Shown piece after piece: positions 6,040 through 63,623 of a stretch of DNA of 64,000 bases. Every line of letters begins with the position of its first letter. Position 1 is the first letter of the stretch. Under the pieces are notes generated by a model that had not been told where the DNA came from, searched no databases, and saw only the letters and a program-made list of their open reading frames with translations. The translations under genes were made by a program, and so were the position numbers. Source of the stretch: Candidatus Bathyarchaeota archaeon RBG_16_48_13 (GTDB lineage Archaea > Thermoproteota > Bathyarchaeia > RBG-16-48-13); the NCBI GenBank assembly GCA_001775995.1, contig MEZH01000007.1, forward strand, positions 43,451 to 107,450. The letters run 5' to 3'.

Positions 6040-6042
6040 ATT

Positions 6043-22661: not shown

Positions 22662-23723
22662 TTGGATTTTGAGAAGGTCAAGTTCGGCGTGCTTTTGAGT
22701 CCCATGGCAATCAATAGAATGATAGAAGACACAATCCTCTGTGAGAAGTATGGGTACGATTCAGTCTGGTGGATCGACCATCTCATCAGCTACTTCCCCG
22801 AACATATTGTCCCTGAGCTCTTCACGACGATGGCCCTAATGGGCGACCAGACACGGAGGATAGCAATAGGTTCCTGCGTCGCGGACGTCCTGAGGAGACA
22901 CCCCGCTTCCATAGCCGCATCGGTAGCGACGATTGATAGCATGTTCAACGGTCGCACAATACTTGGTCTTGGCGCCGGTGAGGCCATGAACCTCGAACCC
23001 TTTGGAATACCGACCGACAACCTCTACGGAAAATTGAGGGAGGCCATACTGGTCATTAGGCTGCTTTGGGCTTCAAGCAAGTTGAAACCGGCCAACTTCA
23101 AAGGAAAATTTTTCAAGCTAACCAAGGCATATGTCCAGATTCAGCCAAAGACGAAACCGAGCCCGCCCATATGGGTCGGTGCCTTCGGGCCAAAGATGCT
23201 CGAGATGACGGGTGAACTGGCCGACGGTTGGTTACCATTCTCCCACTCCCCAGAATCCTATAAGGCATGCATGGATGGTCCCATAAGGAAGGGCGCCGAG
23301 AAGGCGAAGAGAACCCTAGCAAGATTCGTCCCTGCCATGAAACCCATAGCGACCGTGGCGAAGGACCTGGAGGAGGCTAGGAATACCGTTCTGCCCCAGG
23401 CCAAGTACGTGTTGATGATACTACCAGACGTCCTGAAGATGGTCGCCCCTCATGTCTCTCACCCTGGGAGAGAAGCCCTCTCAGTGTCCAGGGAACCCAC
23501 TGACGACGAATCAACCAGCAAGATAGCGCAGATGTCTAAGGCCATCCCGGACGAGTCAGCTCTCAAGACAGTCATCTGGGGAAACCCAGATCAATGCATA
23601 GGACAGATAGAGGCATTCATCAAGGCGGGCTGTCAACACTTTGTTTTGGACTTCAGAGGTCCAGACGTGCAGCAGATTATTTCGACCTACGCAAAGAGAG
23701 TCATACCCTACTTCAGAAAATAG
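22662..23723 (+). CDS. LLM-class F420-dependent oxidoreductase
   Basis: 353 aa. The TTG start lies 7 nt after GGAGGGG. GYDSVWWIDHL, RIAIGSCVADVLRRHPA, GRTILGLGAGE, PPIWVGAFGPKMLEMTGELADGWL. Confidence 0.75.
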   Translation: MDFEKVKFGVLLSPMAINRMIEDTILCEKYGYDSVWWIDHLISYFPEHIVPELFTTMALMGDQTRRIAIGSCVADVLRRHPASIAASVATIDSMFNGRTILGLGAGEAMNLEPFGIPTDNLYGKLREAILVIRLLWASSKLKPANFKGKFFKLTKAYVQIQPKTKPSPPIWVGAFGPKMLEMTGELADGWLPFSHSPESYKACMDGPIRKGAEKAKRTLARFVPAMKPIATVAKDLEEARNTVLPQAKYVLMILPDVLKMVAPHVSHPGREALSVSREPTDDESTSKIAQMSKAIPDESALKTVIWGNPDQCIGQIEAFIKAGCQHFVLDFRGPDVQQIISTYAKRVIPYFRK

Positions 23724-25219: not shown

Positions 25220-26187
25220 TACTTGACTCTCCTATTTATGATGGAAGAAGGCAAAGTGTACTTATAGAAGGTGCCAACGGGGTCCTTGATCTCGCCAACA
25301 AGCTGATCCATGTCATTCTCGGATTTTTCTTTCTCATTCTCTATCCCGAGGATGGAAGAGAGGGCGCCGATCATGGCCGCCCCTTGGTCCGAGGCGCCTG
25401 GTATTGGCCCCATACAACCTGTGCAGGGCATGTTAGCGTCTAGACACGGCTCGCCGCATCCTGATCGTGTTGCCGGACCCATGCAGATGATCCCTTGGTC
25501 TAGGAAACACTTCTTCGGGTCGAGTGCTGTTTCGTGGAAGCGTTTCACTTTTGCGATTTTCTTGTTTCCCTTTTCTCTCTTGCAGCTCTCACAAAGGGAG
25601 ATCTCCGGTGCAAGAACTGAACCCTTCTTCGGATTTGTTCCCGAAGAAAAGGATTGAAGAACCTTGGCTATCAAGTCAACTGGAGGCGGGCAGCCGGGCA
25701 AGTAGAAATCTACATTCACCACTTGATCTAAGGTCTTGACGGTATCGTAAAACTCAGGCAAGGTAAGCTCGCCCTCCTTAGCTTCGGAGCAAGTCCTAGG
25801 AATCACACCAGGGAGGTTTTTGGTGGAGACACTTTCCCGGTAGACTTTCTCGAACACTGTCCTCCTATTGTGCAGGTTAGCCAATCCCGGAACTCCGCCG
25901 CCACAGGCGCAAGAACCGAAGGAGATTAGAATTCTCGATTTCTTCCTAAGCAGCTTGGCTAAGAGTTCATTTTCCCCATTTCTTATGGAGCCGTTAAAGA
26001 AGCAGATATCGACGCTCTTGTCGCCCATTGCCTTTATATCTTTGTATTTGATGTCCATGACCACAGGCCAGAACACTATGTCAGCGACCTTCAACGTGTC
26101 TAGGATCTTCTCGTTGACATCGAGGACTGCCACTTCGCAGCCTCCACAGGTCGAAGCCCAGTAGAAGCCAATCTTCAATTTACTCAT
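25219..26187 (-). CDS. mvhG: [NiFe] hydrogenase small subunit (Mvh-type)
   Basis: MSKLKIGFYWASTCGGCEVAVLD plus multiple Cys clusters. The ATG at 26187 lies 7 nt after GGGAGGC. The ORF track starts at 26202. Confidence 0.85.
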   Translation of the reverse strand: MSKLKIGFYWASTCGGCEVAVLDVNEKILDTLKVADIVFWPVVMDIKYKDIKAMGDKSVDICFFNGSIRNGENELLAKLLRKKSRILISFGSCACGGGVPGLANLHNRRTVFEKVYRESVSTKNLPGVIPRTCSEAKEGELTLPEFYDTVKTLDQVVNVDFYLPGCPPPVDLIAKVLQSFSSGTNPKKGSVLAPEISLCESCKREKGNKKIAKVKRFHETALDPKKCFLDQGIICMGPATRSGCGEPCLDANMPCTGCMGPIPGASDQGAAMIGALSSILGIENEKEKSENDMDQLVGEIKDPVGTFYKYTLPSSIINRRVK

Positions 26188-26201
26188 CAATGTGCCTCCC
26201 A

Positions 26202-26699
26202 TTATGCCTGTGAAGTAGAAGTGACCCGGGACGCTACCCTTTCAAGCTCTCTTAAGGAGGACCCAGCGAATTCTCCTCCCGTCTTCGTCAGCGGGTTGGG
26301 CCCAAGCCTCTTTATCTCGTCCGTCATCTCCTTTACGACATCAGCGAATCTCGCACCTTCCGAAGCCGAGACCCATTCAACCCTGAGCCGCTGGGGCTCG
26401 AAACCCAACTGTTGTAGGAGCTTCCTCAGGGCAGCGATCCTCCTATAGGTCTTGAAGTTGCCCGAGACATAATGACAGTCGGAAGGCAAGTGACAGCCCG
26501 CCACCAGCACCCCATCCGCTCCGCTCTTGAAGGCCTCAAGCACGAAAGCTGGGTCAATTCTCCCGCTACACATGACCCTTATTATTCTGAGGTTCGGCGG
26601 GTATTGCATACGGCTTATTCCAGCTAGATCCGCGCCCGCGTAGGAACACCAGTTGCATAAGAATCCCAAGATTTTCGGCTGAAATTCGTCTACGGCCAT
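26202..26699 (-). CDS. mvhD: methyl-viologen-reducing hydrogenase delta subunit
   Basis: KILGFLCNWCSYAGADLAG..VMCSGRIDP..GADGVLVAGC. Confidence 0.85.
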   Translation of the reverse strand: MAVDEFQPKILGFLCNWCSYAGADLAGISRMQYPPNLRIIRVMCSGRIDPAFVLEAFKSGADGVLVAGCHLPSDCHYVSGNFKTYRRIAALRKLLQQLGFEPQRLRVEWVSASEGARFADVVKEMTDEIKRLGPNPLTKTGGEFAGSSLRELERVASRVTSTSQA

Positions 26700-26700
26700 T

Positions 26701-28674
26701 TCAATCCCTCAGAACTGCTTTGACCTGAGCTAGGATGGCATCATCTGTGAAGTGGCACATCTTGATTGACTTGGTAGGGCAAGCTGATCCGCAGACGCCA
26801 CATCCCTTGCACAAGACTTCAATGACGCTCGACACCTGTTTGCCTGACTTCTCTTTCATCTTTATGGCGCCGTACTCGCAGACGGATTCGCATATTCTGC
26901 ATCCGGAACATAGATCCTCATCGACGCTCGCTATGATCCCTTCTAACTCAACCTTGCCCATCGATAAAGGCACGGCGGCTCTGGAGGCCGCTGCGCCAGC
27001 CTGAGCCACAGCATCGGGTATATCCTTTGGGCCTTGAGCCGCACCGCCCAAGAAGACGCCATCGATGTTGGTCTCGACGGGTCTCAGCTTCGGGTGTGCT
27101 TCCAAGAAGAAGCCGTCAGGTCCCCTCGAAAGCTTCAGAATGCTTTGGAGCTCCGAAGTGTCGGCCCTGGGGATGACACCCGTGGCCAACACAGCCAGAT
27201 CGAACTCCCTCTCTGCGACTTCGCCCAGTAATGTATCTTCGAACCTTAGGACTAGATTCTTGTCATCGGGATTCTCCAGAATCTCGCCGACCCGACCTCT
27301 GATGAATCGCACACCTTCCTGCTGAACGCGTTCATAGAACTCCTCATAGCCTTTACCGAAGCACCTCATGTCTATGTAGAATATCGAGACCTCCGCACCA
27401 GGGAACTTCTCCTTGATCTGGTGCGCTTGCTTCAAGGAGGCCATGCAACAAACCCTTGAACAGTAGAGGTTGGCGTTCTTGTCTCTGGAACCAACGCATT
27501 GAACGAATGCGACACTTCGCGGCGCCTTGCCATCGGAAGGCCTCAACACTTTCCCGCTAGTAGGTCCTGAGGCGTTCACCAATCTCTCAAATTCCAACCC
27601 GTTTATTACATTTCGGTAGATTCCGTAACCGTACTCGGCTTTATGACCCGCGTCGTATAGGTCATAGCCAGTGGCGATGATTATCGCCCCCACCTCGAGC
27701 TCCACTTCCGCGGGCAGCTGACCGAAGTCTATTGCCCCTGAGGTGCAGAACTTCTCACAAGCCCTGCAGATGTTCTTCTTGAAGTAGAGGCAGTTTTCTC
27801 TGTCAATGGTGTACCTCAACGGGACGGCTTGAGGGAAAGGAACGTATATCGCCTTTCTAGTGCCCAGGCCCAGGTCGAACTCGCTGGGGACATTGACCGG
27901 GCACTTTTCAGCGCACAAGCCACACCCGGTGCACTTGGATTCATCAACGTATCTCGGCTTCTTCAAGACCCTGGCCTTGAAGTTGCCTATGTAACCATCT
28001 ATAGCCTTGACCTCAGAGTAGGCGAGCAAGCTGATGTTGGGGTGTCTAGAAATGTCCACCATCTTCGGCGTCAGGATGCATGCCGAGCAATCTAGAGTTG
28101 GAAAAGTCTTGTCGAGCTGAGCCATGTGGCCTCCAATGGATGGGGTCTTTTCCACTAGATGGACCTTGAAGCCTTGATCTGCAAGGTCCAAGGAAGACTG
28201 GATCCCAGCTATGCCGCCACCTATCACGAGGGCTGCAGGGGTCACTGGCACTTCACGCATCTGTAGGGGCTCGTCGAAGACTGATTTGGCCACGGCCGCA
28301 GCTACGAGGGCGATGGCCTTTACCGTGGCTTTTTCCGGCTCCTTCATGTGGACCCAGGAGCACTGTTCTCTTATGTTAGCCATCTCTACCAGATAGGGGT
28401 TTAAGCCGGCTTCTTGAGCGGCCTTTCTGAAAGTGGGCTCATGCATGCGGGGTGAACATGAGGCAACTATGACTCGGTTCAACTTCCTGTCTCGGATGTC
28501 CTGTTTTATCATCGCCTGGCCCGGCTCCGAACACATGTACTTGTAGTCCTTGGCAAGCACAACATTCGGCAGACCTGCAATTCGCTGGGCGACCTTCTCT
28601 ACGTCGACTGTACCCGCTATGTTGGTTCCACAGTGACAGATGTAGACGCCTATTCTCTCGTCAGCCATACTCAC
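26701..28674 (-). CDS. hdrA: heterodisulfide reductase subunit A
   Basis: 657 aa. IGVYICHCGTNIAG, the FAD motif VIGGGIAGIQSSLDLA, several CxxCxxCxxxCP ferredoxin motifs, and an inserted thioredoxin-like part. All positions are Cys and there is no in-frame TGA. Confidence 0.9.
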   Translation of the reverse strand: MSMADERIGVYICHCGTNIAGTVDVEKVAQRIAGLPNVVLAKDYKYMCSEPGQAMIKQDIRDRKLNRVIVASCSPRMHEPTFRKAAQEAGLNPYLVEMANIREQCSWVHMKEPEKATVKAIALVAAAVAKSVFDEPLQMREVPVTPAALVIGGGIAGIQSSLDLADQGFKVHLVEKTPSIGGHMAQLDKTFPTLDCSACILTPKMVDISRHPNISLLAYSEVKAIDGYIGNFKARVLKKPRYVDESKCTGCGLCAEKCPVNVPSEFDLGLGTRKAIYVPFPQAVPLRYTIDRENCLYFKKNICRACEKFCTSGAIDFGQLPAEVELEVGAIIIATGYDLYDAGHKAEYGYGIYRNVINGLEFERLVNASGPTSGKVLRPSDGKAPRSVAFVQCVGSRDKNANLYCSRVCCMASLKQAHQIKEKFPGAEVSIFYIDMRCFGKGYEEFYERVQQEGVRFIRGRVGEILENPDDKNLVLRFEDTLLGEVAEREFDLAVLATGVIPRADTSELQSILKLSRGPDGFFLEAHPKLRPVETNIDGVFLGGAAQGPKDIPDAVAQAGAAASRAAVPLSMGKVELEGIIASVDEDLCSGCRICESVCEYGAIKMKEKSGKQVSSVIEVLCKGCGVCGSACPTKSIKMCHFTDDAILAQVKAVLRD

Positions 28675-29567
28675 TTATTGCCTCCAGTTATGCCTAGTCT
28701 CTCCAAGTATGCGGGCGGGACGCTGTTGTCGTAGAGCCCGAGCTTCTCTGGAGACAGACCCATGGCTAGGCCCAGAAGTTGGGTAATATATAGAACAGGT
28801 ACCCTTTCCTTCAACCTCCCTTTATCCCTGAGCTCGGTCTGGCCCAGATCGAACTGAAGGTGACAGAAGACGCAGGGCGTCACGATGCAATCAACCCCTG
28901 CAGCGGTCATGTTCTGGACCTTTTCGAGCGTGAAGTCCAAGGCGACTAGCGGCTCGCCAGACCTGACGCCGCCGCCTGCCCCACAGCAAATATTCTTGTC
29001 TTTGTATGGGACGCTCTCAGCCCCGACGAGGCTGACCAAGTCGTCCAAGAAGACGGGTCTCTCAGAGGAGCCGTGAGCCCTGATCTTGGTGGGTTTTAAG
29101 TAATGACACCCGTAATGGGCCGCAACCCTCAGGCCTTTCAATTGCCGTGTTATATGGTTTTTCAGGGTTTCCGAGCCCACATCCTTGTCCAAGACCTCAA
29201 CTACGTGTTTCACTTGAGTGCCGCCGCCGTAGCTTCGCTTTACCTTTTCCAAGAGTGCGTTTACTCTTCCTCGTCTTTCTTTGTCATTCAGTATGACGGA
29301 GGCTTCTTGAAGAGAGGCGTAGCAACCGTTGCAGGTGAGGGTTATGTCCAGCCCCAGCTGCTCTGCAATGGAGAGGTTTCTGGCACCTATGACTAGCCAG
29401 TTCTCAAGGTCGAAGCTCCCCAAGACACCTGGGGCCGGGCAGCAAGTGGCGCCGTTCATCTCTAGTAGGTCTATCTGAAATTCATTCATTACGAGTCTCG
29501 TGGCGGCCTCGATGCCTGGATAGCGAAGGGGCATTATGCACCCTAGAAAGAAGGCGTATTTCTTCAT
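28671..29567 (-). CDS. hdrB: heterodisulfide reductase subunit B
   Basis: 298 aa with two CCG domains (..GATCCPAPG.. and ..NICCGAGGG..). Confidence 0.9.
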   Translation of the reverse strand: MKKYAFFLGCIMPLRYPGIEAATRLVMNEFQIDLLEMNGATCCPAPGVLGSFDLENWLVIGARNLSIAEQLGLDITLTCNGCYASLQEASVILNDKERRGRVNALLEKVKRSYGGGTQVKHVVEVLDKDVGSETLKNHITRQLKGLRVAAHYGCHYLKPTKIRAHGSSERPVFLDDLVSLVGAESVPYKDKNICCGAGGGVRSGEPLVALDFTLEKVQNMTAAGVDCIVTPCVFCHLQFDLGQTELRDKGRLKERVPVLYITQLLGLAMGLSPEKLGLYDNSVPPAYLERLGITGGNK

Positions 29568-30130
29568 TTCTTATCCCTAATTACCTTGTTGTAGAAGCCG
29601 TCAGTTCTCATGATCTCTTGGATCTCTGCTAGGGCCTCTGGAAACAGTAATGAGGTCGGAGGAACCGGGCTCAGACCAAGCTTGACGCGGGTCTTCTTCC
29701 CTTCCTCGTTGAGTGGTATCGTGTGACCGGTTTTTATGAAGTTGTTAGCAACGACGAGGTGGCGCTCCTTTGCTCTACCCTCCTCGAAGGCAATATTCCT
29801 GACGATCTTCACAATCTCGGTCACTCTCACGTCTCTGGGGCACCTTTCTTGGCAGGTATAGCAGGTAGTGCAAGACCAGAGATCATTAGTATCCAGGACT
29901 TCTTCCCTATATCCCATCTGGATTCCCCTTATCATGGAGCGAATCCTCAAGGCGGTTCTCCTTCCTGAGGGACAGCTCCCAACGCACGTTCCACATTGGA
30001 CACATTCGTACAGGGTATTCAAATCTTCCAGCGGGTAGATTCTCGCTCCCCTACTCATCACTTCTTTGGCCAGATTCCAGGAGGGAACGCGGTTCGCTTT
30101 CGAGTCTTTCAAAGTGGACAGATCTGCCAC
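29564..30130 (-). CDS. hdrC: heterodisulfide reductase subunit C
   Basis: 188 aa with two 4Fe-4S motifs, CVQCGTCVGSCP and CTTCYTCQERCP. GTG start. Confidence 0.85.
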   Translation of the reverse strand: MADLSTLKDSKANRVPSWNLAKEVMSRGARIYPLEDLNTLYECVQCGTCVGSCPSGRRTALRIRSMIRGIQMGYREEVLDTNDLWSCTTCYTCQERCPRDVRVTEIVKIVRNIAFEEGRAKERHLVVANNFIKTGHTIPLNEEGKKTRVKLGLSPVPPTSLLFPEALAEIQEIMRTDGFYNKVIRDKK

Positions 30131-34545: not shown

Positions 34546-35520
34546 CTAACTTGAGATCTCCTTCACTGCTCTGACTATCTTTTCTTCGTCAGGCAACAGG
34601 CTGTCCTCAAGGATCGGACAGAAAGGTATCGGTGTATCGGGCGTCGCGACTCGCTTGATCGGTGCGTCTAGATAGTCAAAGGCTTCTTCGGCCAGGATAG
34701 CCGCCACCTCACTGCCGAAGCCGCCCTTCTTCCACGCCTCGTGGACTATCACTACTCTACCGGTTTTCTTCACCGATTCCAAGATGGTGTCCTTATCCAA
34801 GGGTGCTATGGTTCTCGGATCGATGACCTCAACACTTATGCCCTGCCCCTTGAGTTTGTCTGCCGCGGCCAATGCCCTGTGAACCATAAGCGAGGTCGCT
34901 ATGAGTGTGACGTCATCGCCACTTCTCTTGATATCGGCTTTTCCGAAGGGAATCAGATATTCCTCTTCTGGGACTTGATTCTTGACGAAGTAAAGGAGCT
35001 TGTGCTCCAAGTACAGGACCGGATTATTTCCCCTTATGGCAGTCTTCAATAGACCCTTGGCGTCGTATGCCGTCGAGGGCATGACCACTTGGAGGCCCGG
35101 AATGTGCATGAAGATGGCTTCGAGGCTTTGGGTGTGTTGAGAGCTTGAGCGCGTTCCTGCCCCTGTGGCCGTTCTGACCACCATGGGCAGCGTCCATTGT
35201 CCTGCCGACATGTACCTTATCTTCGAAGCTTGGTTGAGGAGCATGTCCATGCACACGCCCAAAAAGTCGGAGAACATTATCTCGGCCACAGGTCTTAATC
35301 CCATGGCAGCGCTTCCTACGGCGGTCCCCAAGATGGCGGATTCTGAGATCGGAGTGTCCCTGACTCGGTCGGCTCCGAAGCGGGCCATCAATCCTCTGGT
35401 GACACCGAAATCTCCTCCGATGAGCCCTATGTCTTCGCCCAGAACGAAGACGTTCTCATCACGAGCCATCTCCTCACCTAACGCTTCGCGAATCGCTTCA
35501 CTGATGTTTATTTCTCTCAT
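34546..35520 (-). CDS. 2-oxoacid dehydrogenase E1 component, beta subunit
   Basis: REAL..EM..DENVFVLGEDIG..GG.FGVTRGL, RVRDTPISE, PGLQVVMPSTAYDAKGLL. Confidence 0.85.
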   Translation of the reverse strand: MREINISEAIREALGEEMARDENVFVLGEDIGLIGGDFGVTRGLMARFGADRVRDTPISESAILGTAVGSAAMGLRPVAEIMFSDFLGVCMDMLLNQASKIRYMSAGQWTLPMVVRTATGAGTRSSSQHTQSLEAIFMHIPGLQVVMPSTAYDAKGLLKTAIRGNNPVLYLEHKLLYFVKNQVPEEEYLIPFGKADIKRSGDDVTLIATSLMVHRALAAADKLKGQGISVEVIDPRTIAPLDKDTILESVKKTGRVVIVHEAWKKGGFGSEVAAILAEEAFDYLDAPIKRVATPDTPIPFCPILEDSLLPDEEKIVRAVKEISS

Positions 35521-35538
35521 TGCATCTGGCCTCCCGAT

Positions 35539-36498
35539 TTAACCATAAACGTCTCTAAGCGCCTCTTCTGGCTCCGGGTATGGGCTTTCCTTGGCGTACC
35601 TAACGGCGTCTTCGACCTCCGCCACGCCGTCCTTGCGTATCATCTCGTCGTCACCTTCCTTTAGGGCACCAGATTTCATCAATCTGGCTTTGAGGAGACT
35701 GATCGGATCCCGCCTCGCAGCTTCTTCGATATCCTCTTTAGGTCTGTATGATTGAGAATCGGCTGCGTAGGAACCATACAATCTGGCTGATTTGCATTCG
35801 ACCAATGATGGCCCATTTCCATCCCTTGCCCTGTCAACAGCTTCCTTGACAGCCTCGTAGACCGCTTCAACATCTTGCCCGTCGACGGTGACGCCTGGGA
35901 TATTGTATGCCTTTGCCCTCCCAGATACATTGGCTATCGGCGTTGATCTGGAGACATGGGTTGAAATCGCGTATTGATTGTTATCACAGACGAAGACCGC
36001 TGGAAGCTTCCATAAGGCTGCCAAGTTGATCCCCTCGTGGAATGCCCCCGTGTTATTCGCACCATCACCGAAGACAGTTACTGCTACCCGGTTCTCGCCT
36101 CTCAACTTGAATGAAAACGCTATTCCATCAGCGATTGGGATGGATGATCCGACTATTCCCGTTGTGAGAAAAAGACATAGATCGCGATCGGATAGGTGCA
36201 TAGAACCGCCCTTTCCCTTGCAGCAACCGCTCTCTTTGGCAAACAGTTCAGCCATGATCTTACGCATGGGAATACCTTTGGCGATAGCGTGTCCATGGGC
36301 TCGGTGACCACCCAGCAGCATGTCATCCTTCAGCAACGCTCCAGTTGAGCCTACCGCCACCGCTTCCTGCCCCATGCAAAGATGAAGAAAGCCTGGCAAC
36401 TCCCCTTTCCGAAAGAGCTCCTGAACTTTCTCTTCGAATAGCCTGATCCTAATCATGGTTTTATAGAATTCGACCAATTCTGTGTCGGAGAGAACCAT
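35539..36498 (-). CDS. 2-oxoacid dehydrogenase E1 component, alpha subunit (TPP-binding)
   Basis: GFLHLCMGQEA, GKGGSMH, the TPP motif VFGDGANNTGAFHEGINLAALWKLPAVFVCDNNQYAIST. Confidence 0.85.
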   Translation of the reverse strand: MVLSDTELVEFYKTMIRIRLFEEKVQELFRKGELPGFLHLCMGQEAVAVGSTGALLKDDMLLGGHRAHGHAIAKGIPMRKIMAELFAKESGCCKGKGGSMHLSDRDLCLFLTTGIVGSSIPIADGIAFSFKLRGENRVAVTVFGDGANNTGAFHEGINLAALWKLPAVFVCDNNQYAISTHVSRSTPIANVSGRAKAYNIPGVTVDGQDVEAVYEAVKEAVDRARDGNGPSLVECKSARLYGSYAADSQSYRPKEDIEEAARRDPISLLKARLMKSGALKEGDDEMIRKDGVAEVEDAVRYAKESPYPEPEEALRDVYG

Positions 36499-38568: not shown

Positions 38569-40167
38569 TCAGGTCTTTCTCAGTGTGGCCCTTATCCCTA
38601 TGAAGACAGGCCCTCGGATATCTATCTTCTTCTTCTTGCCTGTAATGTAGCGTTCAGCGACGTCGTTTATTCGGATGTTGATGTCACTCGGAAGTTTCGC
38701 CATTCTCACCCGAAGGGAAAAGTCATCGGTTTGCTCTTTATATAGCATCTTTTCTATTTGCGATGCAGCTTGAGAGGCCACCGCCTCCAAGTATCGAATG
38801 TTTGTGGTGATGCCATTCTCTCTAGCTTCTTTCACTATCGTAACGTGCTCCATGCCCCTTTCAGGGATTCCTAGGAGGTTGCCATCATAAGCGTATATTG
38901 TGTTCAGAGCGGCTGGACCTAGAAGTTTGGTGTTAGGGTCGTGCTCATAGACATAGACTGTCAAATTTCCCTCCTCGAAAACTTTGAATTCGCAGGGACT
39001 CCTGGCCTCAGCGTTTTTCATAGCCACGTCAATTATGGCATCTTTGACTCTCTCTCCCAGTTTTGACTGCGGGGTTTCGAGAGGTTGGACGGCTCGGGCG
39101 AGTTCTTCATCTGTTAGTGCCAACTCTTTGTGGAATTGAGGATAGACGAGTTTTCGAATGTCTTTTTCACCACGAAGGAGCATAGTCATCCGCTCCACTC
39201 CTAGCCCGATGTTAAGGACAGGATATTCTAGGCCGTAATTGGCCAAGGCCACGGGGCTGTATAAGCCCAGTTCAAGCACCTCCACCCATCTATCTGCACT
39301 TTTCTGGTGGACAAAACATTCGTGGTCGGTCCCCGGGGCGTAGTACTTCGGGGTGATCTCCTTGTTCTCGAATCTCACTTCCTCGAAGTTCATAGCATTG
39401 CAGATGTTTGAAGCGATGAGTTTGCCTCTCTCAACAGTAGCTTCGGACCCCATGACAACGCAACTGGCTACGGTGTGGGCTCGGAGGTGAGTCTGGTCTT
39501 CTGTCTGTTCCCGTCTCAAACGGAGGCCTATTGAGAATAGTTTCATTGGCAACTCAACTTTGTACTGAAGAGCTTTCAGTGTCTCAAACCAAGCGCTCGT
39601 CATGTGAGATCGCACGGTTAGGTTTGTAGGTACGGGTTTGAGAGTTGTGAACTCAGGGAAGACCTCCCGAATGATCTGGAGTGCCTTTTCGTCGGGTATT
39701 TGCAGCTTCTTAGCGACTTCCTCCACCAGATCGTCGGCAGCTATGTTGCCTTTCTTATAATCCCTGAGGACCGTCTGAAGGTTGGCGATCTTAGTCCGAT
39801 CCAATTCGACGCCCAACTCCTCGATCTTCTGGCATCTGTCTTTGCCCAAACCTATGTCAGGCCTAGGAAGAGTTGCTAGGTAATAGCATCTATCGAGGAT
39901 GATAGGTGCTTCTGGCCCATACTGTTTGTATATTTCTTCCTCTTCAACAACGAAGGGGTTGATTATTTCATTGAATCCCAACTTCAAGAAAGTTTGGCGG
40001 AGAAGTTCAGCGGTATCTACAACGGGATGGGATTTGCCCTTCAGAGGCCATATGATCTTGGCGTCCTCCGACGCCGAGCGAAGCAGTTCGTTGCCGTCGG
40101 CCCAGACTTTTTCGAACCCTTCCTTTCGGACCCTTGCCAGTATCCCCTGAGTATCAAGCTTTTTCAT
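38569..40167 (-). CDS. sepS: O-phosphoserine--tRNA(Cys) ligase (SepRS)
   Basis: 532 aa. RSHMTSAWF, class II core LGLGVERMTMLL, YAPGTDHE. The length and domain order match SepRS. Confidence 0.8.
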   Translation of the reverse strand: MKKLDTQGILARVRKEGFEKVWADGNELLRSASEDAKIIWPLKGKSHPVVDTAELLRQTFLKLGFNEIINPFVVEEEEIYKQYGPEAPIILDRCYYLATLPRPDIGLGKDRCQKIEELGVELDRTKIANLQTVLRDYKKGNIAADDLVEEVAKKLQIPDEKALQIIREVFPEFTTLKPVPTNLTVRSHMTSAWFETLKALQYKVELPMKLFSIGLRLRREQTEDQTHLRAHTVASCVVMGSEATVERGKLIASNICNAMNFEEVRFENKEITPKYYAPGTDHECFVHQKSADRWVEVLELGLYSPVALANYGLEYPVLNIGLGVERMTMLLRGEKDIRKLVYPQFHKELALTDEELARAVQPLETPQSKLGERVKDAIIDVAMKNAEARSPCEFKVFEEGNLTVYVYEHDPNTKLLGPAALNTIYAYDGNLLGIPERGMEHVTIVKEARENGITTNIRYLEAVASQAASQIEKMLYKEQTDDFSLRVRMAKLPSDINIRINDVAERYITGKKKKIDIRGPVFIGIRATLRKT

Positions 40168-45069: not shown

Positions 45070-46011
45070 ATGTTGGAATCCTTAGATAAAGCCGTGTTGA
45101 AGAAGGCCATAAGAAAGGCGGCCAGGTGGTCGTGGAGACTTCGGAACAAAGATTTTGGGTGGGGAAACGACGCCGTTGTGATAAGGGATTCATACGTGCT
45201 GGATGGCGCTGAACTCATGGCTGGACTCATGAAGGCGGGAATCAGTCCGCGCAGCAGCAAGATGAAGCAGAGCTTAGAATGGGTCAAGAAGGAGCTGACT
45301 GCCAAGGACAAGTGGTGGATAAAGAGTCCTGAGGCATCCAAGTTCTTCTTATGGCCTGTGTTCGTATTATTGCTAGCTAAGGAGCCTGCCAGCTCGCCAG
45401 TGATCTCCCAAGCATTGTCAGAACTGAGGCAGTTTAAGGTCTCAGGAAGAGGTTGGAATAATGCTCTTGGAGGTGACAGCAATATCTACGTCACAGCTCT
45501 GGCCTTGATCTGCCTGCCAAATATTTCGGCCACAGCCGAAGACCTGAAGGAGGCGAAAGCCTGGCTTATGTCGGTCCAGAACCAAGATGGCAGTTGGGGA
45601 TACTATCCAACGTGGAGGGGGGAGAACATATGCACTTCAATTTCTACTTGGGGTTTGATTGAGGCTGGTGAGAAGGACTCCAAAGCTGTAAAGAAGGCGA
45701 CCCAATGGCTTCTCGCCTCCCAGAGGAGAGACGGCCACTGGCAACTTAACTATGAGGTGGGTGCTATGGATGGCCACGGCGACGCTTATATTCACTTCAG
45801 CACGCCATGGACTCTGACGGCTCTCCTGAAGAGCGGGATGAAGGCCACGGACGAACCCATAGTAAGAGGAATGAAGTATCTTATGAGCTTCCAAGACAAG
45901 AATGGTGGATGGCCTGCCACAGATATATCAATCTTAGCAGAGAGGTTGACCCGCACGACCTGGGCAACTGGAAACGCTCTAATGGCCATAGCAGCGTATC
46001 TCAAAGCCTGA
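45070..46011 (+). CDS. prenyltransferase/squalene-cyclase-repeat (alpha/alpha-toroid) protein
   Basis: Repeated motifs RNKDFGWG, VSGRGWN, QNQDGSWGYY, QRRDGHWQ, QDKNGGWP, each spaced about 45-50 aa apart. Confidence 0.6.
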   Translation: MLESLDKAVLKKAIRKAARWSWRLRNKDFGWGNDAVVIRDSYVLDGAELMAGLMKAGISPRSSKMKQSLEWVKKELTAKDKWWIKSPEASKFFLWPVFVLLLAKEPASSPVISQALSELRQFKVSGRGWNNALGGDSNIYVTALALICLPNISATAEDLKEAKAWLMSVQNQDGSWGYYPTWRGENICTSISTWGLIEAGEKDSKAVKKATQWLLASQRRDGHWQLNYEVGAMDGHGDAYIHFSTPWTLTALLKSGMKATDEPIVRGMKYLMSFQDKNGGWPATDISILAERLTRTTWATGNALMAIAAYLKA

Positions 46012-47766: not shown

Positions 47767-48582
47767 TTGGCTGAGAAGAGTAGACTGATAGTCGCGATTT
47801 TGACCGATTTTGGCCAACAGAGTTGGTACGTGCCGGCAATCAAAGGCGTCCTCCTCACCATCTGTCCCGATGCGAGAATAGTTGACTTGAGCCTCCAGGT
47901 GCCGCGCCAAGACGTGCTAGCTGGTGCGTTCATTTTGGGTTTTTCCTCAGTATATTATCCGAGAGGCACGGTTTTTCTCTGCATCGTGGATCCCAGCGTC
48001 GGCACTGATAGGAATCTGATCATTATGGAAAGCGATGAGAGACACTATTTTGTCGCGCCCGACAATGGCCTTCTGACATTCGTTGCTAAACGGGAGGGGA
48101 TCAGAAAAATCGTGAAGATAACGAACCGGAAATATATGCTCAGAGAGATCTCTCGGACATTTCATGGAAGAGACATTTTGGCTCCCGCTGCAGCTTATCT
48201 AACTAGGGGAGAACCGTTAGAGAAATTTGGGCCCAAAGTAAAGAAAATTGTCAGGCTTGACATTGAGGAGCCGCGTGTCGAGAATGGAACAGTTAGAGGC
48301 AAAATTATCTTCGTAGACGACTTCGGCAATATGATCACCAACATAGGTGAAGCTATTCTGAAGAAGGCGGACATAAAATCTGGGACAGAGATCTCAGTGA
48401 TGTTCACCCCTTTCAGTGAGATGATGCTCTTCTGCCAAACCTACGATGATGTGAAGGCGGATAAACCTCTGGGCCTCATAGGAAGCACGGGCTTCTTTGA
48501 GATTTCCGTGAATCATGGAGACGCGGCCAAGAGATACCACGCATATCCGGGATCTGATGTGATAATTGCTGTCAAAGTCTGA
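47767..48582 (+). CDS. SAM hydrolase / SAM hydroxide adenosyltransferase family (DUF62)
   Basis: IVAILTDFGQQSWYVPAIKGVL, VDPSVGT, FHGRDILAPAAAYL, IIFVDDFGN. TTG start. Confidence 0.75.
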   Translation: MAEKSRLIVAILTDFGQQSWYVPAIKGVLLTICPDARIVDLSLQVPRQDVLAGAFILGFSSVYYPRGTVFLCIVDPSVGTDRNLIIMESDERHYFVAPDNGLLTFVAKREGIRKIVKITNRKYMLREISRTFHGRDILAPAAAYLTRGEPLEKFGPKVKKIVRLDIEEPRVENGTVRGKIIFVDDFGNMITNIGEAILKKADIKSGTEISVMFTPFSEMMLFCQTYDDVKADKPLGLIGSTGFFEISVNHGDAAKRYHAYPGSDVIIAVKV

Positions 48583-59838: not shown

Positions 59839-59934
59839 GCGGTCGTAGTCTAGTTTGGTCTAGGACGTCAGCCTGCCAACCGGATCTAGGGCGGAGCGCT
59901 GGTGACCCGGGTTCAAATCCCGGCGACCGCACCA
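59839..59934 (+). tRNA. tRNA-Gly(GCC) with an intron of about 18 nt at or next to position 37/38, CCA encoded
   Basis: GCGGTCG/CGACCGC acceptor, GTCT/GGAC D-stem, TCAGC/GCTGG anticodon stem, loop CTGCCA + intron ACCGGATCTAGGGCGGAG, CCGGG-TTCAAAT-CCCGG T-arm. Confidence 0.8.
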
Positions 59935-60435: not shown

Positions 60436-60534
60436 GCGGCTGTGGTCTAGTCTGGTCTAGGACTTCAAGTCCCTCAAGGGGCGAGCAAGCCTTCCAAGCT
60501 GACTACCCGGGCTCAAATCCCGGCAGCCGCACCA
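60436..60534 (+). tRNA. tRNA-Gly(UCC) with an intron of about 21 nt inside the 5' strand of the anticodon stem (non-canonical), CCA encoded
   Basis: GCGGCTG/CAGCCGC acceptor and GTCT/GGAC D-stem. The 3' anticodon-stem strand GCTGA needs TCAGC, which exists only as TCA[AGTCCCTCAAGGGGCGAGCAA]GC. Loop CTTCCAA, CCGGG-CTCAAAT-CCCGG T-arm. The exact junction is ambiguous by 1-2 nt. Confidence 0.7.
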
Positions 60535-60539
60535 GACAC

Positions 60540-61529
60540 GTGGTCTCAGATTCAAAAAGGACGGGCGCAACACAAGTGGAAACCTACAGCCCCGACGATC
60601 TCAGGGAAAAGTACAAGGAAACAAAGTGGATCTCGCCGTACCAGAAGATAGTGGCTGTCCATGATGAGAAATTAAGCCAAATAGAAGTCCACGAGTATCA
60701 CGCCAGGGGGAAATGCGTTGGTGGGGCTGCTTGGGAAACATATCATTATCCCAGGGTCAGTCCTCTCGTCCTGGAGGCTCGAAGAGAAGGCCCAAAGAAC
60801 ATCTTTCGAGTCAAGACAGGGTCAACCAACTTGCATCTGGTTCCTGGAATAGCAGGTGCTGGCATCGAACAGGCTTGCGTCGACGGAGAAGAGATAAAAC
60901 TTACCTACGCCGGTCTGGCTGGAGGGGGCATAGCTGCAACAATATGCAGGGGTCTAGCTTCAGGCGTAAAGAGGATAGAGATCAAGGAAAGAGGTGGAGG
61001 GAACCAACTTGGCAGAGCTACTCTCATCCTCCCGCTGAAGCACAGATTGGTCGTTGGGATAGACGATACAGACAGCCCTTCAGGAGGCGCCACTTGGTCC
61101 CTCTCGAACGAATTGGGCTACTTTCTCGAGAAACATAGGCAGGCGGACTACCTTAACCACACCATCGTCCAGCTCTACACAGGGAACCCCTGGAAGACCA
61201 CCAATGGCGTCAGCATAGCTTTGACCTTCGCCGTTTTGCCGCAGAAAAAAGAAAAGTTGATCCAAATCATAAAACGCCAACTGAGGCAGAATTCCCAATC
61301 ATCGGAAACGGCCATCGCCCTATTTGACGGGATAAAGCCGCCGGACTCCATCAAGGTATTCGCTCTTCACGCTAAGACGCGCCTCATTGAGATGGAGGAA
61401 GCCCAAACAACGGCCCGAGGAGAAAATGTGTCTCTTGTTCCAATCACTGGTCAGCGTGGGGTCATAGGAGCTTTGGCAGCTATTGGGTACGCCGATGAGC
61501 CTGATGAAGCCGTAAAGATCATAAAATGA
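60540..61529 (+). CDS. fusion protein: unknown Gly/Ala-rich N-domain + TiaS-N-terminal (ATP-using kinase-like, DUF1743-type) domain
   Basis: Residues from about 168: LVVGIDDTDSPSGGATW...NPWKTTNGVSIALTF...ITGQRGVIGALAAIGY. These parallel the TiaS N-terminus as I recall it (VGIDDTDSSRGMCTTY, NPTIPYKTRGNGAVSF, GRGLIGALAAVG). The start codon is uncertain (GTG at 60540 lies 6 nt after the tRNA; alternative GTG at 60573). Confidence 0.55.
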   Translation: MVSDSKRTGATQVETYSPDDLREKYKETKWISPYQKIVAVHDEKLSQIEVHEYHARGKCVGGAAWETYHYPRVSPLVLEARREGPKNIFRVKTGSTNLHLVPGIAGAGIEQACVDGEEIKLTYAGLAGGGIAATICRGLASGVKRIEIKERGGGNQLGRATLILPLKHRLVVGIDDTDSPSGGATWSLSNELGYFLEKHRQADYLNHTIVQLYTGNPWKTTNGVSIALTFAVLPQKKEKLIQIIKRQLRQNSQSSETAIALFDGIKPPDSIKVFALHAKTRLIEMEEAQTTARGENVSLVPITGQRGVIGALAAIGYADEPDEAVKIIK

Positions 61530-61544
61530 TAACAGGCGATCACC

Positions 61545-62624
61545 ATGGACCCTACTCTCCTTAAAGTGAGTTTACTATGCTATGGCGCACGATCCCCGCC
61601 AGATTTTGACAAAGGAAGATGTGGGGGTGCGGGTCCGGCTGGTGGAGGATATCTCGTTTTGGATGGCACCGCGACGCCGTCCACGAACGTGGCGTTTCAG
61701 GGCCATCATGTGAGGAATTCCCCCTTTTCCATTGAGAAAGTTGGAGAAGAATGCTTGCTTTGCCAAGATAACGCCCCGTCGATTGCGGTTCGGTTAGTCG
61801 AAAGACCGGCTTTTCTCGACAACAGAACCTCTGAGGGTATTCCTGTTTGGAAAATCGCGTCTTTTCACGGGAGCGATGCAATAGGCGTTACGATAGACAA
61901 GAACTGCTATTACTGGAGAAACAAACAGCAGTGCAAATTCTGCGCCATAGAGCAGAAAATCAAGACCCACTCCGGAAAGAGCCTTGCTATCAAGACACCT
62001 CAGCAAGTGAGTGACGCGATTGAGGCAGCGGTCGAATCAGGGTTCTGCCACCACGTGACCCTTACCACAGGCATCGCTGAGACACCTGACAGAGGAGCTA
62101 CCCCCTATATACCAATACTTAGAGAAATTAGAAGGAACCTAAAAACTCCAGTTCATGTTCAGCTCGAGCCTCCTCAGGATCTTGAGATGCTGGGGAGACT
62201 ATACGAAGAAGGAGCGGACACCGTTGGGCTCCACATTGAGAGCCTTGACGAGAAGGTCAAGAGAAGAGTCTGCCCGGGAAAGCCGCCAGATAGAGTATAT
62301 TTTCGGGCTTGGAAATATGCTGAAAAGACTTTTGGCCAAAATCAGGTCAGCACGTTCATTCTGGTCGGACTTGGTGAGGACCCAAAGCTGACAGATAGAA
62401 GATTGGAGAATGTGACATCGGCCGGCGCGATTCCATTTGTAACGCCCTTTAGACCCCTTCTAGGGACAGAATTGGAAAATGAGGATCCACCAAATCCTTC
62501 GTATCTTCTGGGAATCACGGAAAAGGCCGTAGTCAAAATGAAAGACAGTGGTATGAAACCCAATGAGAACAGAGCGGGTTGTGTGAGGTGCGGAGCCTGC
62601 TCCGCCATAATGGAAGTTTTTTGA
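61545..62624 (+). CDS. radical-SAM-like enzyme with CX8CX2C cluster motif and extra N-domain
   Basis: C121YYWRNKQQC130KFC133AIE. Downstream barrel-like elements are HVTLTTG, EEGADTVGLHIESLDEKV and STFILVGLGED. The C-terminal Cys motif is GCVRCGAC. Confidence 0.6.
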   Translation: MDPTLLKVSLLCYGARSPPDFDKGRCGGAGPAGGGYLVLDGTATPSTNVAFQGHHVRNSPFSIEKVGEECLLCQDNAPSIAVRLVERPAFLDNRTSEGIPVWKIASFHGSDAIGVTIDKNCYYWRNKQQCKFCAIEQKIKTHSGKSLAIKTPQQVSDAIEAAVESGFCHHVTLTTGIAETPDRGATPYIPILREIRRNLKTPVHVQLEPPQDLEMLGRLYEEGADTVGLHIESLDEKVKRRVCPGKPPDRVYFRAWKYAEKTFGQNQVSTFILVGLGEDPKLTDRRLENVTSAGAIPFVTPFRPLLGTELENEDPPNPSYLLGITEKAVVKMKDSGMKPNENRAGCVRCGACSAIMEVF

Positions 62625-62648
62625 GAACTACCTTGAGGCTTAAGGGTA

Positions 62649-63482
62649 TTGGACATTCTCAAGAGAATTCAAGAACTCCAGCGAAATAGTCATCGAATAG
62701 GGTTTGGGGTCAGGGTTGAAGACAGGACTCACCCAGACAAGATCATAGAGGTCGCGGAAAAAGTGGAGTCCATGCATTTTGGGAGGGTCATCTATGTGGG
62801 ACAAATGTGTTCATCGCCAATGAGGGATGCAATCTATACCGAGGAACCTGAGAGAATGCTATTAGATCTCCTGTGTATGGGGGATATCGATGCCGCGGTT
62901 AGGGGGACTGCAAAGGCATCCGTTATTTTGAGATTAATAAAAGAAAAACTTGGGCAACGGTCTTTCTTTAGGATTGCTCTCCTAGAAACAAGTATGGGTC
63001 ATCAGTTCCTCTTAGCACCAGTGGGGATTGATGAAGGTAGCTCGATAAATGAGAGACTGACGATTATCACGTCTGGGGCTCAACTGCTGAAGCAGCTTGG
63101 GGTCGAACCTAGGATTGGTGTACTTTCAGGTGGCAGGATGGAGGACATAGGTAGAAGTCCCGATATTGACAAGACTATAGAAGAGAGCCAGGAGCTGACG
63201 AGCAAAGCGCGGGAACAACTGCCTTACATAATAGAGCATTATGGAATACTGGTCGAAGACGCCATACAGGCGAGAGCAAATCTTATCCTTGCACCTAACG
63301 GCATGATTGGTAACTTCGTCTACCGGACGCTCATCCATCTGGGTTCTGGCAAGTCCCATGGTGCTATCTACGTCGGCATTAACGAAATACTGGTAGACAC
63401 GTCACGATCTGCTCCCCCAGAGGAATATTTACATGCCATTCGCCTTGCAAATGCGCTGACCACGATAGCAAAAAGAATCTGA
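62649..63482 (+). CDS. PTA/PTB/PlsX-fold protein, MtxX-like (methanogen-marker-4-like)
   Basis: 277 aa. DAAVRGTAKAS, PRIGVLSGGR, ANLILAPNGMIGNFVYRTL parallel the PTA-family pattern (..A.LS.., ..DvlvvPdleaGNi.YK.l). The size fits MtxX. TTG start. Confidence 0.55.
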   Translation: MDILKRIQELQRNSHRIGFGVRVEDRTHPDKIIEVAEKVESMHFGRVIYVGQMCSSPMRDAIYTEEPERMLLDLLCMGDIDAAVRGTAKASVILRLIKEKLGQRSFFRIALLETSMGHQFLLAPVGIDEGSSINERLTIITSGAQLLKQLGVEPRIGVLSGGRMEDIGRSPDIDKTIEESQELTSKAREQLPYIIEHYGILVEDAIQARANLILAPNGMIGNFVYRTLIHLGSGKSHGAIYVGINEILVDTSRSAPPEEYLHAIRLANALTTIAKRI

Positions 63483-63526
63483 AAGAAAGCCATTTAAGGA
63501 ACCAGCTCCGAGACCTTACAACTTGA

Positions 63527-63623
63527 GGGCCGGTAGCTCAGCCTGGTATGAGCGCTGCGTTGGCATCGCAGAGACCCATTGTAGGGCTGTAAGTCACGGG
63601 TCCGAATCCCGCCCGGTCCACCA
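63527..63623 (+). tRNA. tRNA-Ala(GGC) with an insertion of about 19 nt (intron) in the variable region (about 45/46, non-canonical), CCA encoded
   Basis: GGGCCGG/CCGGTCC acceptor with the G3:U70 Ala identity pair, GCTC/GAGC D-stem, CTGCG-TTGGCAT-CGCAG intact anticodon arm. The next 24 nt, AG[ACCCATTGTAGGGCTGTAA]GTC, sit where 5 are expected. T-arm ACGGG-TCCGAAT-CCCGC. Confidence 0.75.

Follow-up and report, generated by a model that had tools for sequence, protein, structure and literature searches.

Gene content and architecture of the operon

We analyzed a 64,000-nucleotide (nt) stretch of the genome of Candidatus Bathyarchaeota archaeon RBG_16_48_13, hereafter the window, in which three adjacent genes encode methanogenesis marker protein 11 (Mmp11), a variant radical S-adenosylmethionine (SAM) enzyme (rSAM) and methanogenesis marker protein 4 (Mmp4, or MtxX) (Table 1). 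All three are located on the + strand with gaps of 15 nt between genes 1 and 2 and 24 nt between genes 2 and 3, and they form one operon. This agrees with an initial annotation made from the sequence, which had described an apparent operon of open reading frames (ORFs) at 60540-61529, 61545-62624 and 62649-63482 within the interval 60436-63623. The interval does enclose the trio, but its ends are tRNA genes and gene 1 likely starts at 60576 rather than 60540. The three ORFs are intact and retain the family-invariant residues. The accompanying guess that methanogenesis markers 4 and 11 are present was borne out, as both TIGR03270 and TIGR03280 score above their cut-offs.

Table 1. Features of the Mmp11-rSAM-Mmp4 locus in the window
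Feature	Position	Strand	Basis
Gene 1, longest ORF	60540-61529	+	ORF list
Gene 1, Mmp11, 317 aa from GTG (most likely start)	60576-61529	+	TIGR03280 and homologue lengths
Mmp11 N-terminal domain (aa 13-166)	60576-61037	+	invariant alignment columns
Mmp11 C-terminal TiaS-type kinase domain (TCKD)	61038-61526	+	PF22641, Foldseek, profile alignment
Gene 2, variant radical SAM enzyme of the MSMEG_0568 (Nit1C NitD) family, 359 aa	61545-62624	+	family profile scores
Radical-SAM cluster motif C121-x8-C130-x2-C133	61905-61943	+	invariant in homologue alignments
C346-x2-C349-x2-C352, putative auxiliary Fe-S site	62580-62600	+	invariant in homologue alignments
Gene 3, Mmp4/MtxX, PTA/PlsX-type fold, 277 aa	62649-63482	+	TIGR03270, PDB 9nzy
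tRNA gene, 96 nt, presumably intron-bearing, outside the enzyme module	60436-60531	+	Rfam RF00005, 39.1 bits, model 1-71
tRNA-Ala(GGC) gene, 97 nt, presumably intron-bearing, outside the enzyme module	63527-63623	+	ARAGORN and Rfam, 45.7 bits

Gene 1 matches TIGR03280 (methanogenesis marker 11) with 343.1 bits against a cut-off of 255.8, from residue 33 to 326 of the ORF and over positions 1-291 of the 292 in the model. Its closest homologues (P0121-P0124) have 317 aa, in a family ranging from about 309 to 342 aa, and the alignment begins at V13; P-numbers denote homologous proteins, and L-numbers denote loci from GTDB species representatives, other fetched loci and metagenome loci. Since an in-frame GTG is located at 60576, this codon is most likely the start. 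As first proposed, the protein is a fusion of a novel N-terminal domain and a TiaS-type module. An AlphaFold2 (AF2) model built on 18 homologues has a pLDDT of 90.4. The Pfam profile TiaS_TCKD (PF22641) matches aa 171-242 (1.6e-15), and by Foldseek only the C-terminal half resembles TiaS (3u02, 1.9e-9; 3amt, 2e-8) with root-mean-square deviations of 2.5-3.7 Å (2.5 Å for 3amt). The motifs GxDDTD, PxKT and RGxIGALAA and the residue T185 are conserved in this domain. In the profile alignment the first of them (GvDDTD) falls on D8, D9 and D11 of TiaS, and the invariant T185 falls on Thr18, the autophosphorylation site of TiaS. By analogy, the likeness suggests ATP-dependent phosphorylation chemistry in Mmp11.

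Mmp11 is, however, not a TiaS. It ends at the TCKD, with a weak FLD match and without the OB fold and Zn ribbon of TiaS, so that the predicted loss of the tRNA-binding parts was confirmed. Against the TiaS equivalog NF040849 it reaches 48.9 bits of the 600 required, aligned to model positions 2-153 of 422 only. Instead, Mmp11 carries an N-terminal domain of about 150 aa whose strong conservation extends to numerous invariant residues (His, Glu, Arg and Cys) and to Gly-rich motifs. The stretches HARGxCxGGAAWE, AGAGIE, YAGLAGGGIAATxCRG and GGGxxLGRA are invariant in the homologue alignment, and Foldseek returned no significant PDB match for the domain. An internal duplication was ruled out, as hhalign of the N- and C-terminal halves shows no similarity. 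A free-standing N-terminal domain was also ruled out, because hidden Markov models of the halves matched full-length Mmp11 only among all ORFs of 165 loci.

The relationship to TiaS raises the question of RNA modification, for which Mmp11, as a TiaS paralogue, would phosphorylate the carbonyl of a nucleobase before the rSAM finishes the hypermodification. The TCKD fold and catalytic motifs are kept, including the Thr18 equivalent, tRNA is a frequent target of radical SAM enzymes, a two-gene module would be workable in any host, and tRNA genes flank the trio. We nevertheless regard this explanation as very unlikely, because the RNA-binding parts of TiaS are all missing, the conserved neighbors are metabolic rather than translation-related, and the tRNA flanks are not conserved at other loci.

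The product of gene 2 scores above the thresholds of two radical SAM profiles, PF04055 (47.2 bits, gathering cut-off 29.5, aa 129-280) and NF045502 variant_rSAM (186.1 bits, cut-off 125). It narrowly misses TIGR04043 (MSMEG_0568), with 286.9 bits against 303.7 in a full-length match to positions 6-351 of 354. The C-x8-C-x2-C arrangement and the terminal CxxCxxC noticed in the initial annotation proved to be family features: C121, C130 and C133, C346, C349 and C352, and an N-terminal GRxGGAGP are invariant across 27-30 homologues from archaea and bacteria. The cluster motif reads C-x6-8-C-x2-C throughout the family instead of the canonical C-x3-C-x2-C. The C-terminal Cys triad is probably the site of an auxiliary Fe-S cluster, judging from its conservation.

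An AF2 model of gene 2 (pLDDT 93.6) finds its best solved fold relatives in lipoyl synthase (5exj, 4.8e-8), HydE, PylB and BioB, although the resemblance is moderate (TM-scores of only about 0.5-0.6). In the profile search human LIAS ranks best (6.7e-6) and ThiH is also found, while the LipS2 profile NF053743 gives 39.6 bits (4e-10) against a cut-off of 270, below the level of a lipoyl synthase equivalog. Lipoyl synthase is therefore the best match by both fold and profile, and LipA/LIAS and the archaeal LipS1/LipS2, which are sulfur-inserting radical SAM enzymes, are among the nearest known systems. The second Cys triad suggests an auxiliary cluster in gene 2. The spacing of the radical SAM motif differs from that of LipA, and the auxiliary Cys residues of LipA form an N-terminal CX4CX5C whereas those of gene 2 are C-terminal. 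Sulfur insertion by gene 2 would be hypothetical.

The gene 2 family comprises 1045 homologues from archaea (Asgard, Bathyarchaeia, Hadarchaeales, Theionarchaea and Methanocellales) and bacteria. It is the radical SAM family of the Nit1C or MSMEG_0565-0572 (sll0783-0787) clusters, and identity to the Kineococcus proteins is 37-40%. The variant Cys motif, GRxGGAGP and the C-terminal CxxCxxC are all invariant on both sides. In both systems the rSAM also has an ATP-dependent partner of a type that phosphorylates carbonyl oxygens. However, this partner is AIR-synthase-like (AIRS-like; sll0787) in Nit1C, and TiaS-kinase-like Mmp11 together with the phosphotransacetylase (PTA)-fold Mmp4 in the trio. 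The GNAT/AIRS, nitrilase and flavoprotein neighborhood of Nit1C is absent from the window, and it is present in Kineococcus, where the rSAM copy lies in a classic cluster of a GNAT-AIRS fusion, a nitrilase and a flavoprotein. The Nit1C-type radical SAM family thus has an archaeal branch with other partners. The trio is an MSMEG_0568-type cassette of a radical SAM enzyme and an ATP-dependent activating enzyme, with Mmp11 as a different partner and an added PTA-fold enzyme, and is not categorically new.

This family membership and the classic context of the Kineococcus homologue would suggest a function in scavenging nitrogen or metabolizing nitriles, which has been proposed for the MSMEG_0568 clusters of bacteria. 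Such a function is highly improbable for the trio, as no nitrilase, GNAT or Nit1C flavoprotein is found near it or near any Mmp11-linked copy. The FAD enzyme of a Methanomethylicia operon described below was considered as a homologue of the Nit1C flavoprotein and rejected, since the dinucleotide-binding motif alone matches.

Gene 3 was assigned to TIGR03270 (Mmp4/MtxX) with 224.3 bits against a cut-off of 190 and matches the crystal structure of MtxX of Methanothermobacter (9nzy_A) at 2.4e-43, an orthologue-level match within a PTA-like fold family; the PTA-fold/MtxX assignment made at the outset is thus upheld. At the equivalog level of PTA and phosphotransbutyrylase (PTB) the best score is 34.6 bits against 399 and covers the C-terminal 60-70 residues only, so that gene 3 appears to share the fold class but not the enzyme identity. 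The role of MtxX was still unsettled in the crystal-structure paper of 2026, in which a conserved basic cleft is occupied in the crystal by an acidic protein C-terminus, a carboxylate (PMC12978539). The mtxX synteny published there includes uppS, mmp12, mmp2 and mtxAH; mmp11 is not listed and linkage to Mmp11 or this rSAM is not reported in that paper (PMC12978539).

Conserved linkage of Mmp11, rSAM and Mmp4

An Mmp11 profile scan of GTDB species representatives yielded 79 loci, whose neighbors were identified by tblastn and ORF clustering. In 37 of these 79 species-level loci, at most 400 nt separate the rSAM gene from Mmp11. They include 11 of the 16 named Archaeoglobi (Geoglobus, Mnemosynella and others; 11 of the 16 loci have at least 1.1 kb on either side of Mmp11), all seven archaea with an Archaeoglobi-like gene order, 11 of 15 Actinomycetota (Geothermincolia, Anoxymicrobiaceae and Acidimicrobiales) and 8 of 13 single lineages. 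The proportion is 0/21 in Methanomethylicia, 0/3 in Thermoplasmata and 0/2 in Methanonatronarchaeia-like genomes. Methanocellales, Methylarchaceae, Methanodesulfokora and NM3 are among the single lineages with the pair, which is also found in Korarchaeia. The two genes overlap by 4-8 nt in the bacteria and in Geoglobus, where they form a stand-alone two-gene operon.

Mmp4 adjoins Mmp11 directly in Methanocellales, NM3, a 'Methanomicrobia' metagenome-assembled genome (MAG), Methanofastidiosia and MAGs labelled 'Thermococci' and 'Halobacteria', and at least six named lineages show this adjacency. The complete trio was found in L001/L002, L008, L087 and L144, and in none of the Archaeoglobi or Actinomycetota loci. 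The order Mmp11-rSAM-Mmp4 is retained in other genomes at 43-59% identity. The co-localization that the operon proposal called for is therefore seen in many distant genomes, as the trio or as pairs. Mmp11 is not confined to methanogens, and its architecture is shared by the proteins of Geoglobus/Ferroglobus, Mnemosynella, the Bathyarchaeon of the window and the 15 Actinomycetota species loci.

Such a distribution bears on the simplest explanation, chance adjacency or decaying methanogenesis remnants without common function. The host apparently lacks methyl-coenzyme M reductase (MCR), and such markers have been termed 'remnants' (PMC9635834). This explanation can hardly be maintained, as the ORFs are intact, every family-invariant residue is kept, and the same order recurs at 43-59% identity and across phyla. 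No mention of marker protein 11, TIGR03280, TIGR04043 or an Mmp11-rSAM(-Mmp4) module was found in the searchable literature, and none of the three genes maps to a characterized family with an independent role. Three catalogued orphan families are thereby joined in one conserved module, which is more than routine annotation. Because the genes are widely co-localized and their families have no established role, the original suggestion of a cofactor or modification pathway not yet described remains reasonable; its ATP use, SAM cleavage and acyl or phosphoryl transfer are predicted from the folds.

Mmp11 occurs in 15 species-level Actinomycetota genomes (L025-L028, L030, L034, L047, L051, L053, L058, L061, L063, L069, L077 and L081), nearly always in a two-gene operon with rSAM, and the contigs carry bacterial sigma-factor and DnaK genes. 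A gene similar to the alpha part of ADP-forming acyl-CoA synthetase lies one to three ORFs upstream; at one locus it is directly upstream of a divergent small ORF. The pair in Actinomycetota looks like an inter-domain transfer.

Several loci place the genes near MCR. Mmp11 is immediately upstream of mcrBDGA in two Methanonatronarchaeia-like genomes, and in L001 (GCA_024256265.1) mcrBDGA and the genes for McrC, the A2 ATPase and marker DUFs share an island with the trio. An AIRS-like protein encoded beside the L001 trio (5822-6760, - strand; also L069) is intermediate in score between Mmp2 and the sll0787 family of Nit1C and ties the Mmp2-like, Mmp4, Mmp11 and rSAM families into one neighborhood network. 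YcaO/TfuA genes are found within about 3 kb in seven or eight Archaeoglobaceae and Korarchaeia loci. An AIRS-like protein (F15) near Mmp11 in Archaeoglobaceae was identified as HypE of a hypCDEF cluster and dropped as an unrelated neighbor.

These contexts agree with a module that modifies a protein, namely MCR in hosts that have it and some other conserved protein in the rest. Mmp11 would, in a YcaO-like manner, activate a carbonyl of the backbone or of a side chain for modification by the rSAM. Besides the mcr-linked genomes and the YcaO/TfuA neighbors in two phyla, the protein C-terminus in the MtxX crystal cleft would fit such a role (PMC12978539). Yet the module is present in the MCR-less organism of the window (PMC10321748), in Geoglobus and in Actinomycetota, and the Aks-like operon described below is left unexplained. 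No conserved adjacent gene for a precursor peptide or recognition domain was found, and neither Mmp4 nor Mmp11 belongs to, or is mentioned with, the MCR activation complex whose structure has been solved. We consider protein modification distinctly unlikely.

Genomic contexts and a possible role in thiol-cofactor biosynthesis

In Methanomethylicia, Mmp4 and Mmp11 are interleaved in a seven-gene operon with overlapping starts and stops. Its order is a short AksA-like synthase, Mmp4, a HacA-like protein, a HacB-like protein, a thiamine pyrophosphate (TPP) enzyme similar to acetolactate synthase (ALS), Mmp11 and a GMC-like FAD enzyme with a 4Fe-4S motif. The HacA-like protein scores 549 bits, one short of the cut-off for methanogen homoaconitase (550), and only 472 bits against 611 for LEU2; the ALS-like enzyme scores under the ALS cut-off. 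Aks and Hac enzymes make 2-oxosuberate, the precursor of coenzyme B (CoB), and the next step needs a TPP-dependent decarboxylase. The family F21 was considered as the missing AksF of Methanomethylicia and rejected, being by eye an NAD-dependent epimerase.

Related neighbors were found elsewhere. In two Thermoplasmata species a short AksA-like synthase gene is directly upstream of Mmp11, and the gene after Mmp11 (L043, 2328-3206; L050, 10925-11311) encodes a LipS1-family lipoyl synthase over its cut-off or an LplB-like small subunit just under. In Geoglobus acetivorans, G. ahangari and a Geoglobus MAG, about 700 nt past Mmp11-rSAM, three genes on the same strand encode a cysteate-synthase-like protein (251 bits, cut-off 325), a fused ComDE-like protein resembling sulfopyruvate decarboxylase, whose alpha part scores over its cut-off, and an SsuA-like protein (L167, G. 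acetivorans CP087714.1, 10001-15840; L168; L012). The 715-nt gap between the rSAM gene and the cysteate-synthase-like gene in G. acetivorans contains no Rfam family and no plausible ORF. The three genes next to Mmp11-rSAM suggest that the non-methanogenic Geoglobus makes a sulfoacetaldehyde-derived compound.

A TrxB-like gene is located upstream in Geoglobus. A SufS-like gene is divergent to rSAM in Mnemosynella and Hadarchaeales, with FdhD and a COG1900 gene nearby in Hadarchaeales. A homoserine dehydrogenase gene overlaps rSAM in Methanocellales (a single case), and a BASS-family organic-anion transporter gene precedes Mmp4-Mmp11-rSAM in several MAGs.

The Geoglobus locus has a counterpart in Methanosarcina acetivorans, where cs and comDE are followed by MMP16 for coenzyme M (CoM) synthesis (PMC12068725). 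Mmp11-rSAM adjoins the cs-comDE-like genes, the set that MMP16 follows there (PMC12068725), so that the pair may, by analogy with ComF/Mmp16 and L-ASST (COG1900), serve a thiol-forming step in Geoglobus. The COG1900 enzymes have no sequence relation to Mmp11-rSAM, and the analogy is drawn from gene position alone.

From these contexts we tentatively propose that the trio acts in late, sulfur-related steps of CoB/CoM-type thiol-cofactor biosynthesis. The Methanomethylicia operon is here read as the CoB carbon-skeleton pathway. The AksA-like neighbor in Thermoplasmata, the cysteate-synthase- and ComDE-like neighbors in Geoglobus, and the SufS-like, SsuA-type and YcaO/TfuA neighbors point in the same direction, and lipoyl synthase is the closest relative of the rSAM by fold and by profile. 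The basic MtxX cleft holding a carboxylate terminus is also consistent with it (PMC12978539). The window encodes HdrA, HdrB and HdrC-like proteins together with an Mvh/Vhu-type [NiFe] hydrogenase (MvhADG-like) in a cluster at 23768-30130 on the - strand, and its HdrB scores over the equivalog cut-off of CoB-CoM heterodisulfide reductase (Hdr).

The substrate and each chemical step are proposed on the basis of gene identities, conserved motifs, folds and conserved linkage. Mmp11 would act right after the TPP-dependent 2-oxoacid decarboxylase and, at the expense of ATP, phosphorylate an oxygen of the carbonyl or hydroxyl type in the intermediate, possibly 7-oxoheptanoate or a derivative, or sulfoacetaldehyde in Geoglobus. 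The threonine hydroxyl of 7-mercaptoheptanoyl-threonine would be an alternative target. The LipA-like rSAM could then supply a C-S bond-forming or reductive step, which may be provided elsewhere by the FAD/Fe-S oxidoreductase (Methanomethylicia) or by COG1900 proteins, Mmp16 among them. The anionic product would be the substrate of Mmp4/MtxX in an acyl or phosphoryl transfer, as in the attachment of the acyl moiety to threonine.

CoB is a substrate of the reaction that yields nearly all biological methane. To our knowledge, its last synthesis steps have had no assigned genes since the pathway was outlined around 1990. The late enzymes were still without genes in 2025 (PMC12068725). The CoB idea is attractive because these enzymes are expected to be nearly universal in MCR-bearing archaea, as Mmp4 and Mmp11 were defined. 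In its stronger form, Mmp11 and Mmp4, with the MSMEG_0568-type rSAM where present, would be the missing late CoB enzymes with a lipoyl-synthase-like radical route to the thiol, and CoB/CoM-like thiols would be used beyond methane metabolism; we consider this stronger form doubtful. If true, MCR-less Bathyarchaeia, Geoglobus and Actinomycetota would make such thiols, used for example by Hdr complexes. The gene linkage places the module in operons with presumed CoB carbon-skeleton genes and beside CoM-type genes, and its role is testable in cultured Geoglobus and model methanogens. Should the idea be wrong, the module would still be a widespread unit in which a radical SAM enzyme accompanies an ATP-dependent one.

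Several observations weigh against a role in thiol-cofactor synthesis. No mcr has been reported for the Bathyarchaeia order typified by RBG_16_48_13, and mcr/acr were found in just 3 of 304 surveyed Bathyarchaeia MAGs, RBG_16_48_13 not among them (PMC10321748). Geoglobus and Actinomycetota are also without MCR, so that involvement in CoB synthesis would presuppose that hosts of this kind use such thiols, for example with Hdr. In cultured class I/II methanogens mtxX has no aks linkage (PMC12978539), and most of them appear to lack this rSAM beside Mmp11. The aldehyde-to-thiol step already has Mmp16 and L-ASST as candidates (PMC12068725). The AksA-, HacAB- and ALS-like proteins of Methanomethylicia are just under the equivalog cut-offs and could be encoded by leucine or branched-chain amino-acid genes. 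The ComDE (Geoglobus only), LipS1/LplB and homoserine dehydrogenase contexts are each known from one locus or genus. Most rSAM family members pair with AIRS-like proteins or lie in Nit1C nitrilase clusters, which have no CoB link.

In 80 metagenome loci of the rSAM family, the commonest neighbor is an AIRS-like protein that scores between Mmp2 and the sll0787 family, often on both sides of the rSAM gene, and such pairs cluster with FmdE, DUF1893, a CbiA/NifH/ParA-type ATPase, DUF362 and DUF2148. PurM-like and TiaS-kinase-like families both activate carbonyl oxygens by phosphorylation. The rSAM is thus regularly partnered with an ATP-dependent enzyme of this type, and the window cluster is the TiaS-kinase variant with Mmp4. 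In a second type of locus it occurs with an SsuA-type ABC transporter and FMN reductase, the SsuA-type protein flanking rSAM in 14 metagenome loci, and in a third with CoA-binding or ADP-forming acyl-CoA-synthetase-like proteins.

A module that builds another small molecule or a metal-centre ligand by HydE/HydG/HypE-type logic, with a radical SAM enzyme and an ATP-dependent carbonyl activator assembling a ligand or cofactor unrelated to CoB/CoM, would account for the frequent AIRS-like partners of the PurM/HypE superfamily in their two flanking copies and for their maturase-like company. HydE is among the top fold matches of the rSAM, Mmp2, itself AIRS-like, is a published neighbor of mtxX (PMC12978539), and Mmp11-rSAM is a self-contained two-gene operon in Actinomycetota and Geoglobus. 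However, it leaves Mmp4 and Mmp11 among 2-oxoacid elongation genes and ComDE-like neighbors unexplained, the maturase-like clusters are without Mmp11 and Mmp4, and no candidate metalloenzyme is linked to the trio. We judge this explanation unlikely.

The AIRS-like/rSAM pairs show a recurrent archaeal order (L094-L113 and others, for example L113, 5242-12167) of FmdE, DUF1893, CbiA/NifH/ParA-type ATPase, (DUF362), AIRS-like, rSAM, AIRS-like and DUF2148. This cluster looks like a metallocofactor-maturation or ligand-synthesis system, and no description of it was found in the searchable literature.

Flanking tRNA genes and other genes of the window

The tRNA gene upstream of the trio was found by Rfam and missed by ARAGORN. 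A third tRNA gene is located at 59839-59934. All three are about 94-97 nt long and match the whole 71-position Rfam model, and introns are therefore presumed; ARAGORN called Gly(GCC) and Ala(GGC) among them. The end of the middle gene is 8 nt from the longest gene 1 ORF and 44 nt from the likely GTG start, so close upstream that the promoter of gene 1 may sit upstream of this tRNA gene or be shared with it. A scan for sigma-70 promoters and terminators, which does not cover archaeal promoters, gave chance-level matches only.

Housekeeping genes for an aCPSF1-type nuclease, a proteasome subunit, glycerol-1-phosphate (G1P) dehydrogenase, UPF0179, FKBP and YjbQ adjoin the trio together with the tRNA genes. 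A relative at 59% identity has the trio and the flanking housekeeping genes in identical order. The tRNA flanks were considered as a sign of a mobile island and rejected, since this conserved order shows that the cluster is not a mobile insert.

The initial annotation had also raised a link to tetrahydromethanopterin (H4MPT) and methyl-transfer genes in the window. Methenyl-H4MPT cyclohydrolase (Mch, 17655-18617) and an MtrH-like methyltransferase subunit (5137-6039) are indeed encoded, but more than 40 kb from the trio. The connection was rejected because no H4MPT gene is recurrently next to the module, and the informative neighborhoods at other loci indicate thiol-cofactor or 2-oxoacid-elongation genes instead. 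Two luciferase-like (Mer-like) genes are located at 1257-2249 and 22662-23723.

The window further encodes SepRS (O-phosphoseryl-tRNA ligase, 38569-40167), which indicates that the host makes cysteine by the tRNA-dependent route characteristic of methanogens and Archaeoglobus, as well as TYW1. The alpha and beta subunits of a 2-oxoacid dehydrogenase E1 are encoded at 34546-36498 on the - strand in this anaerobic Bathyarchaeon. A protein of the (R)-SAM hydrolase/fluorinase family, under its cut-offs, was found at 47767-48582, and a short protein with squalene-cyclase-type repeats at 45070-46011.

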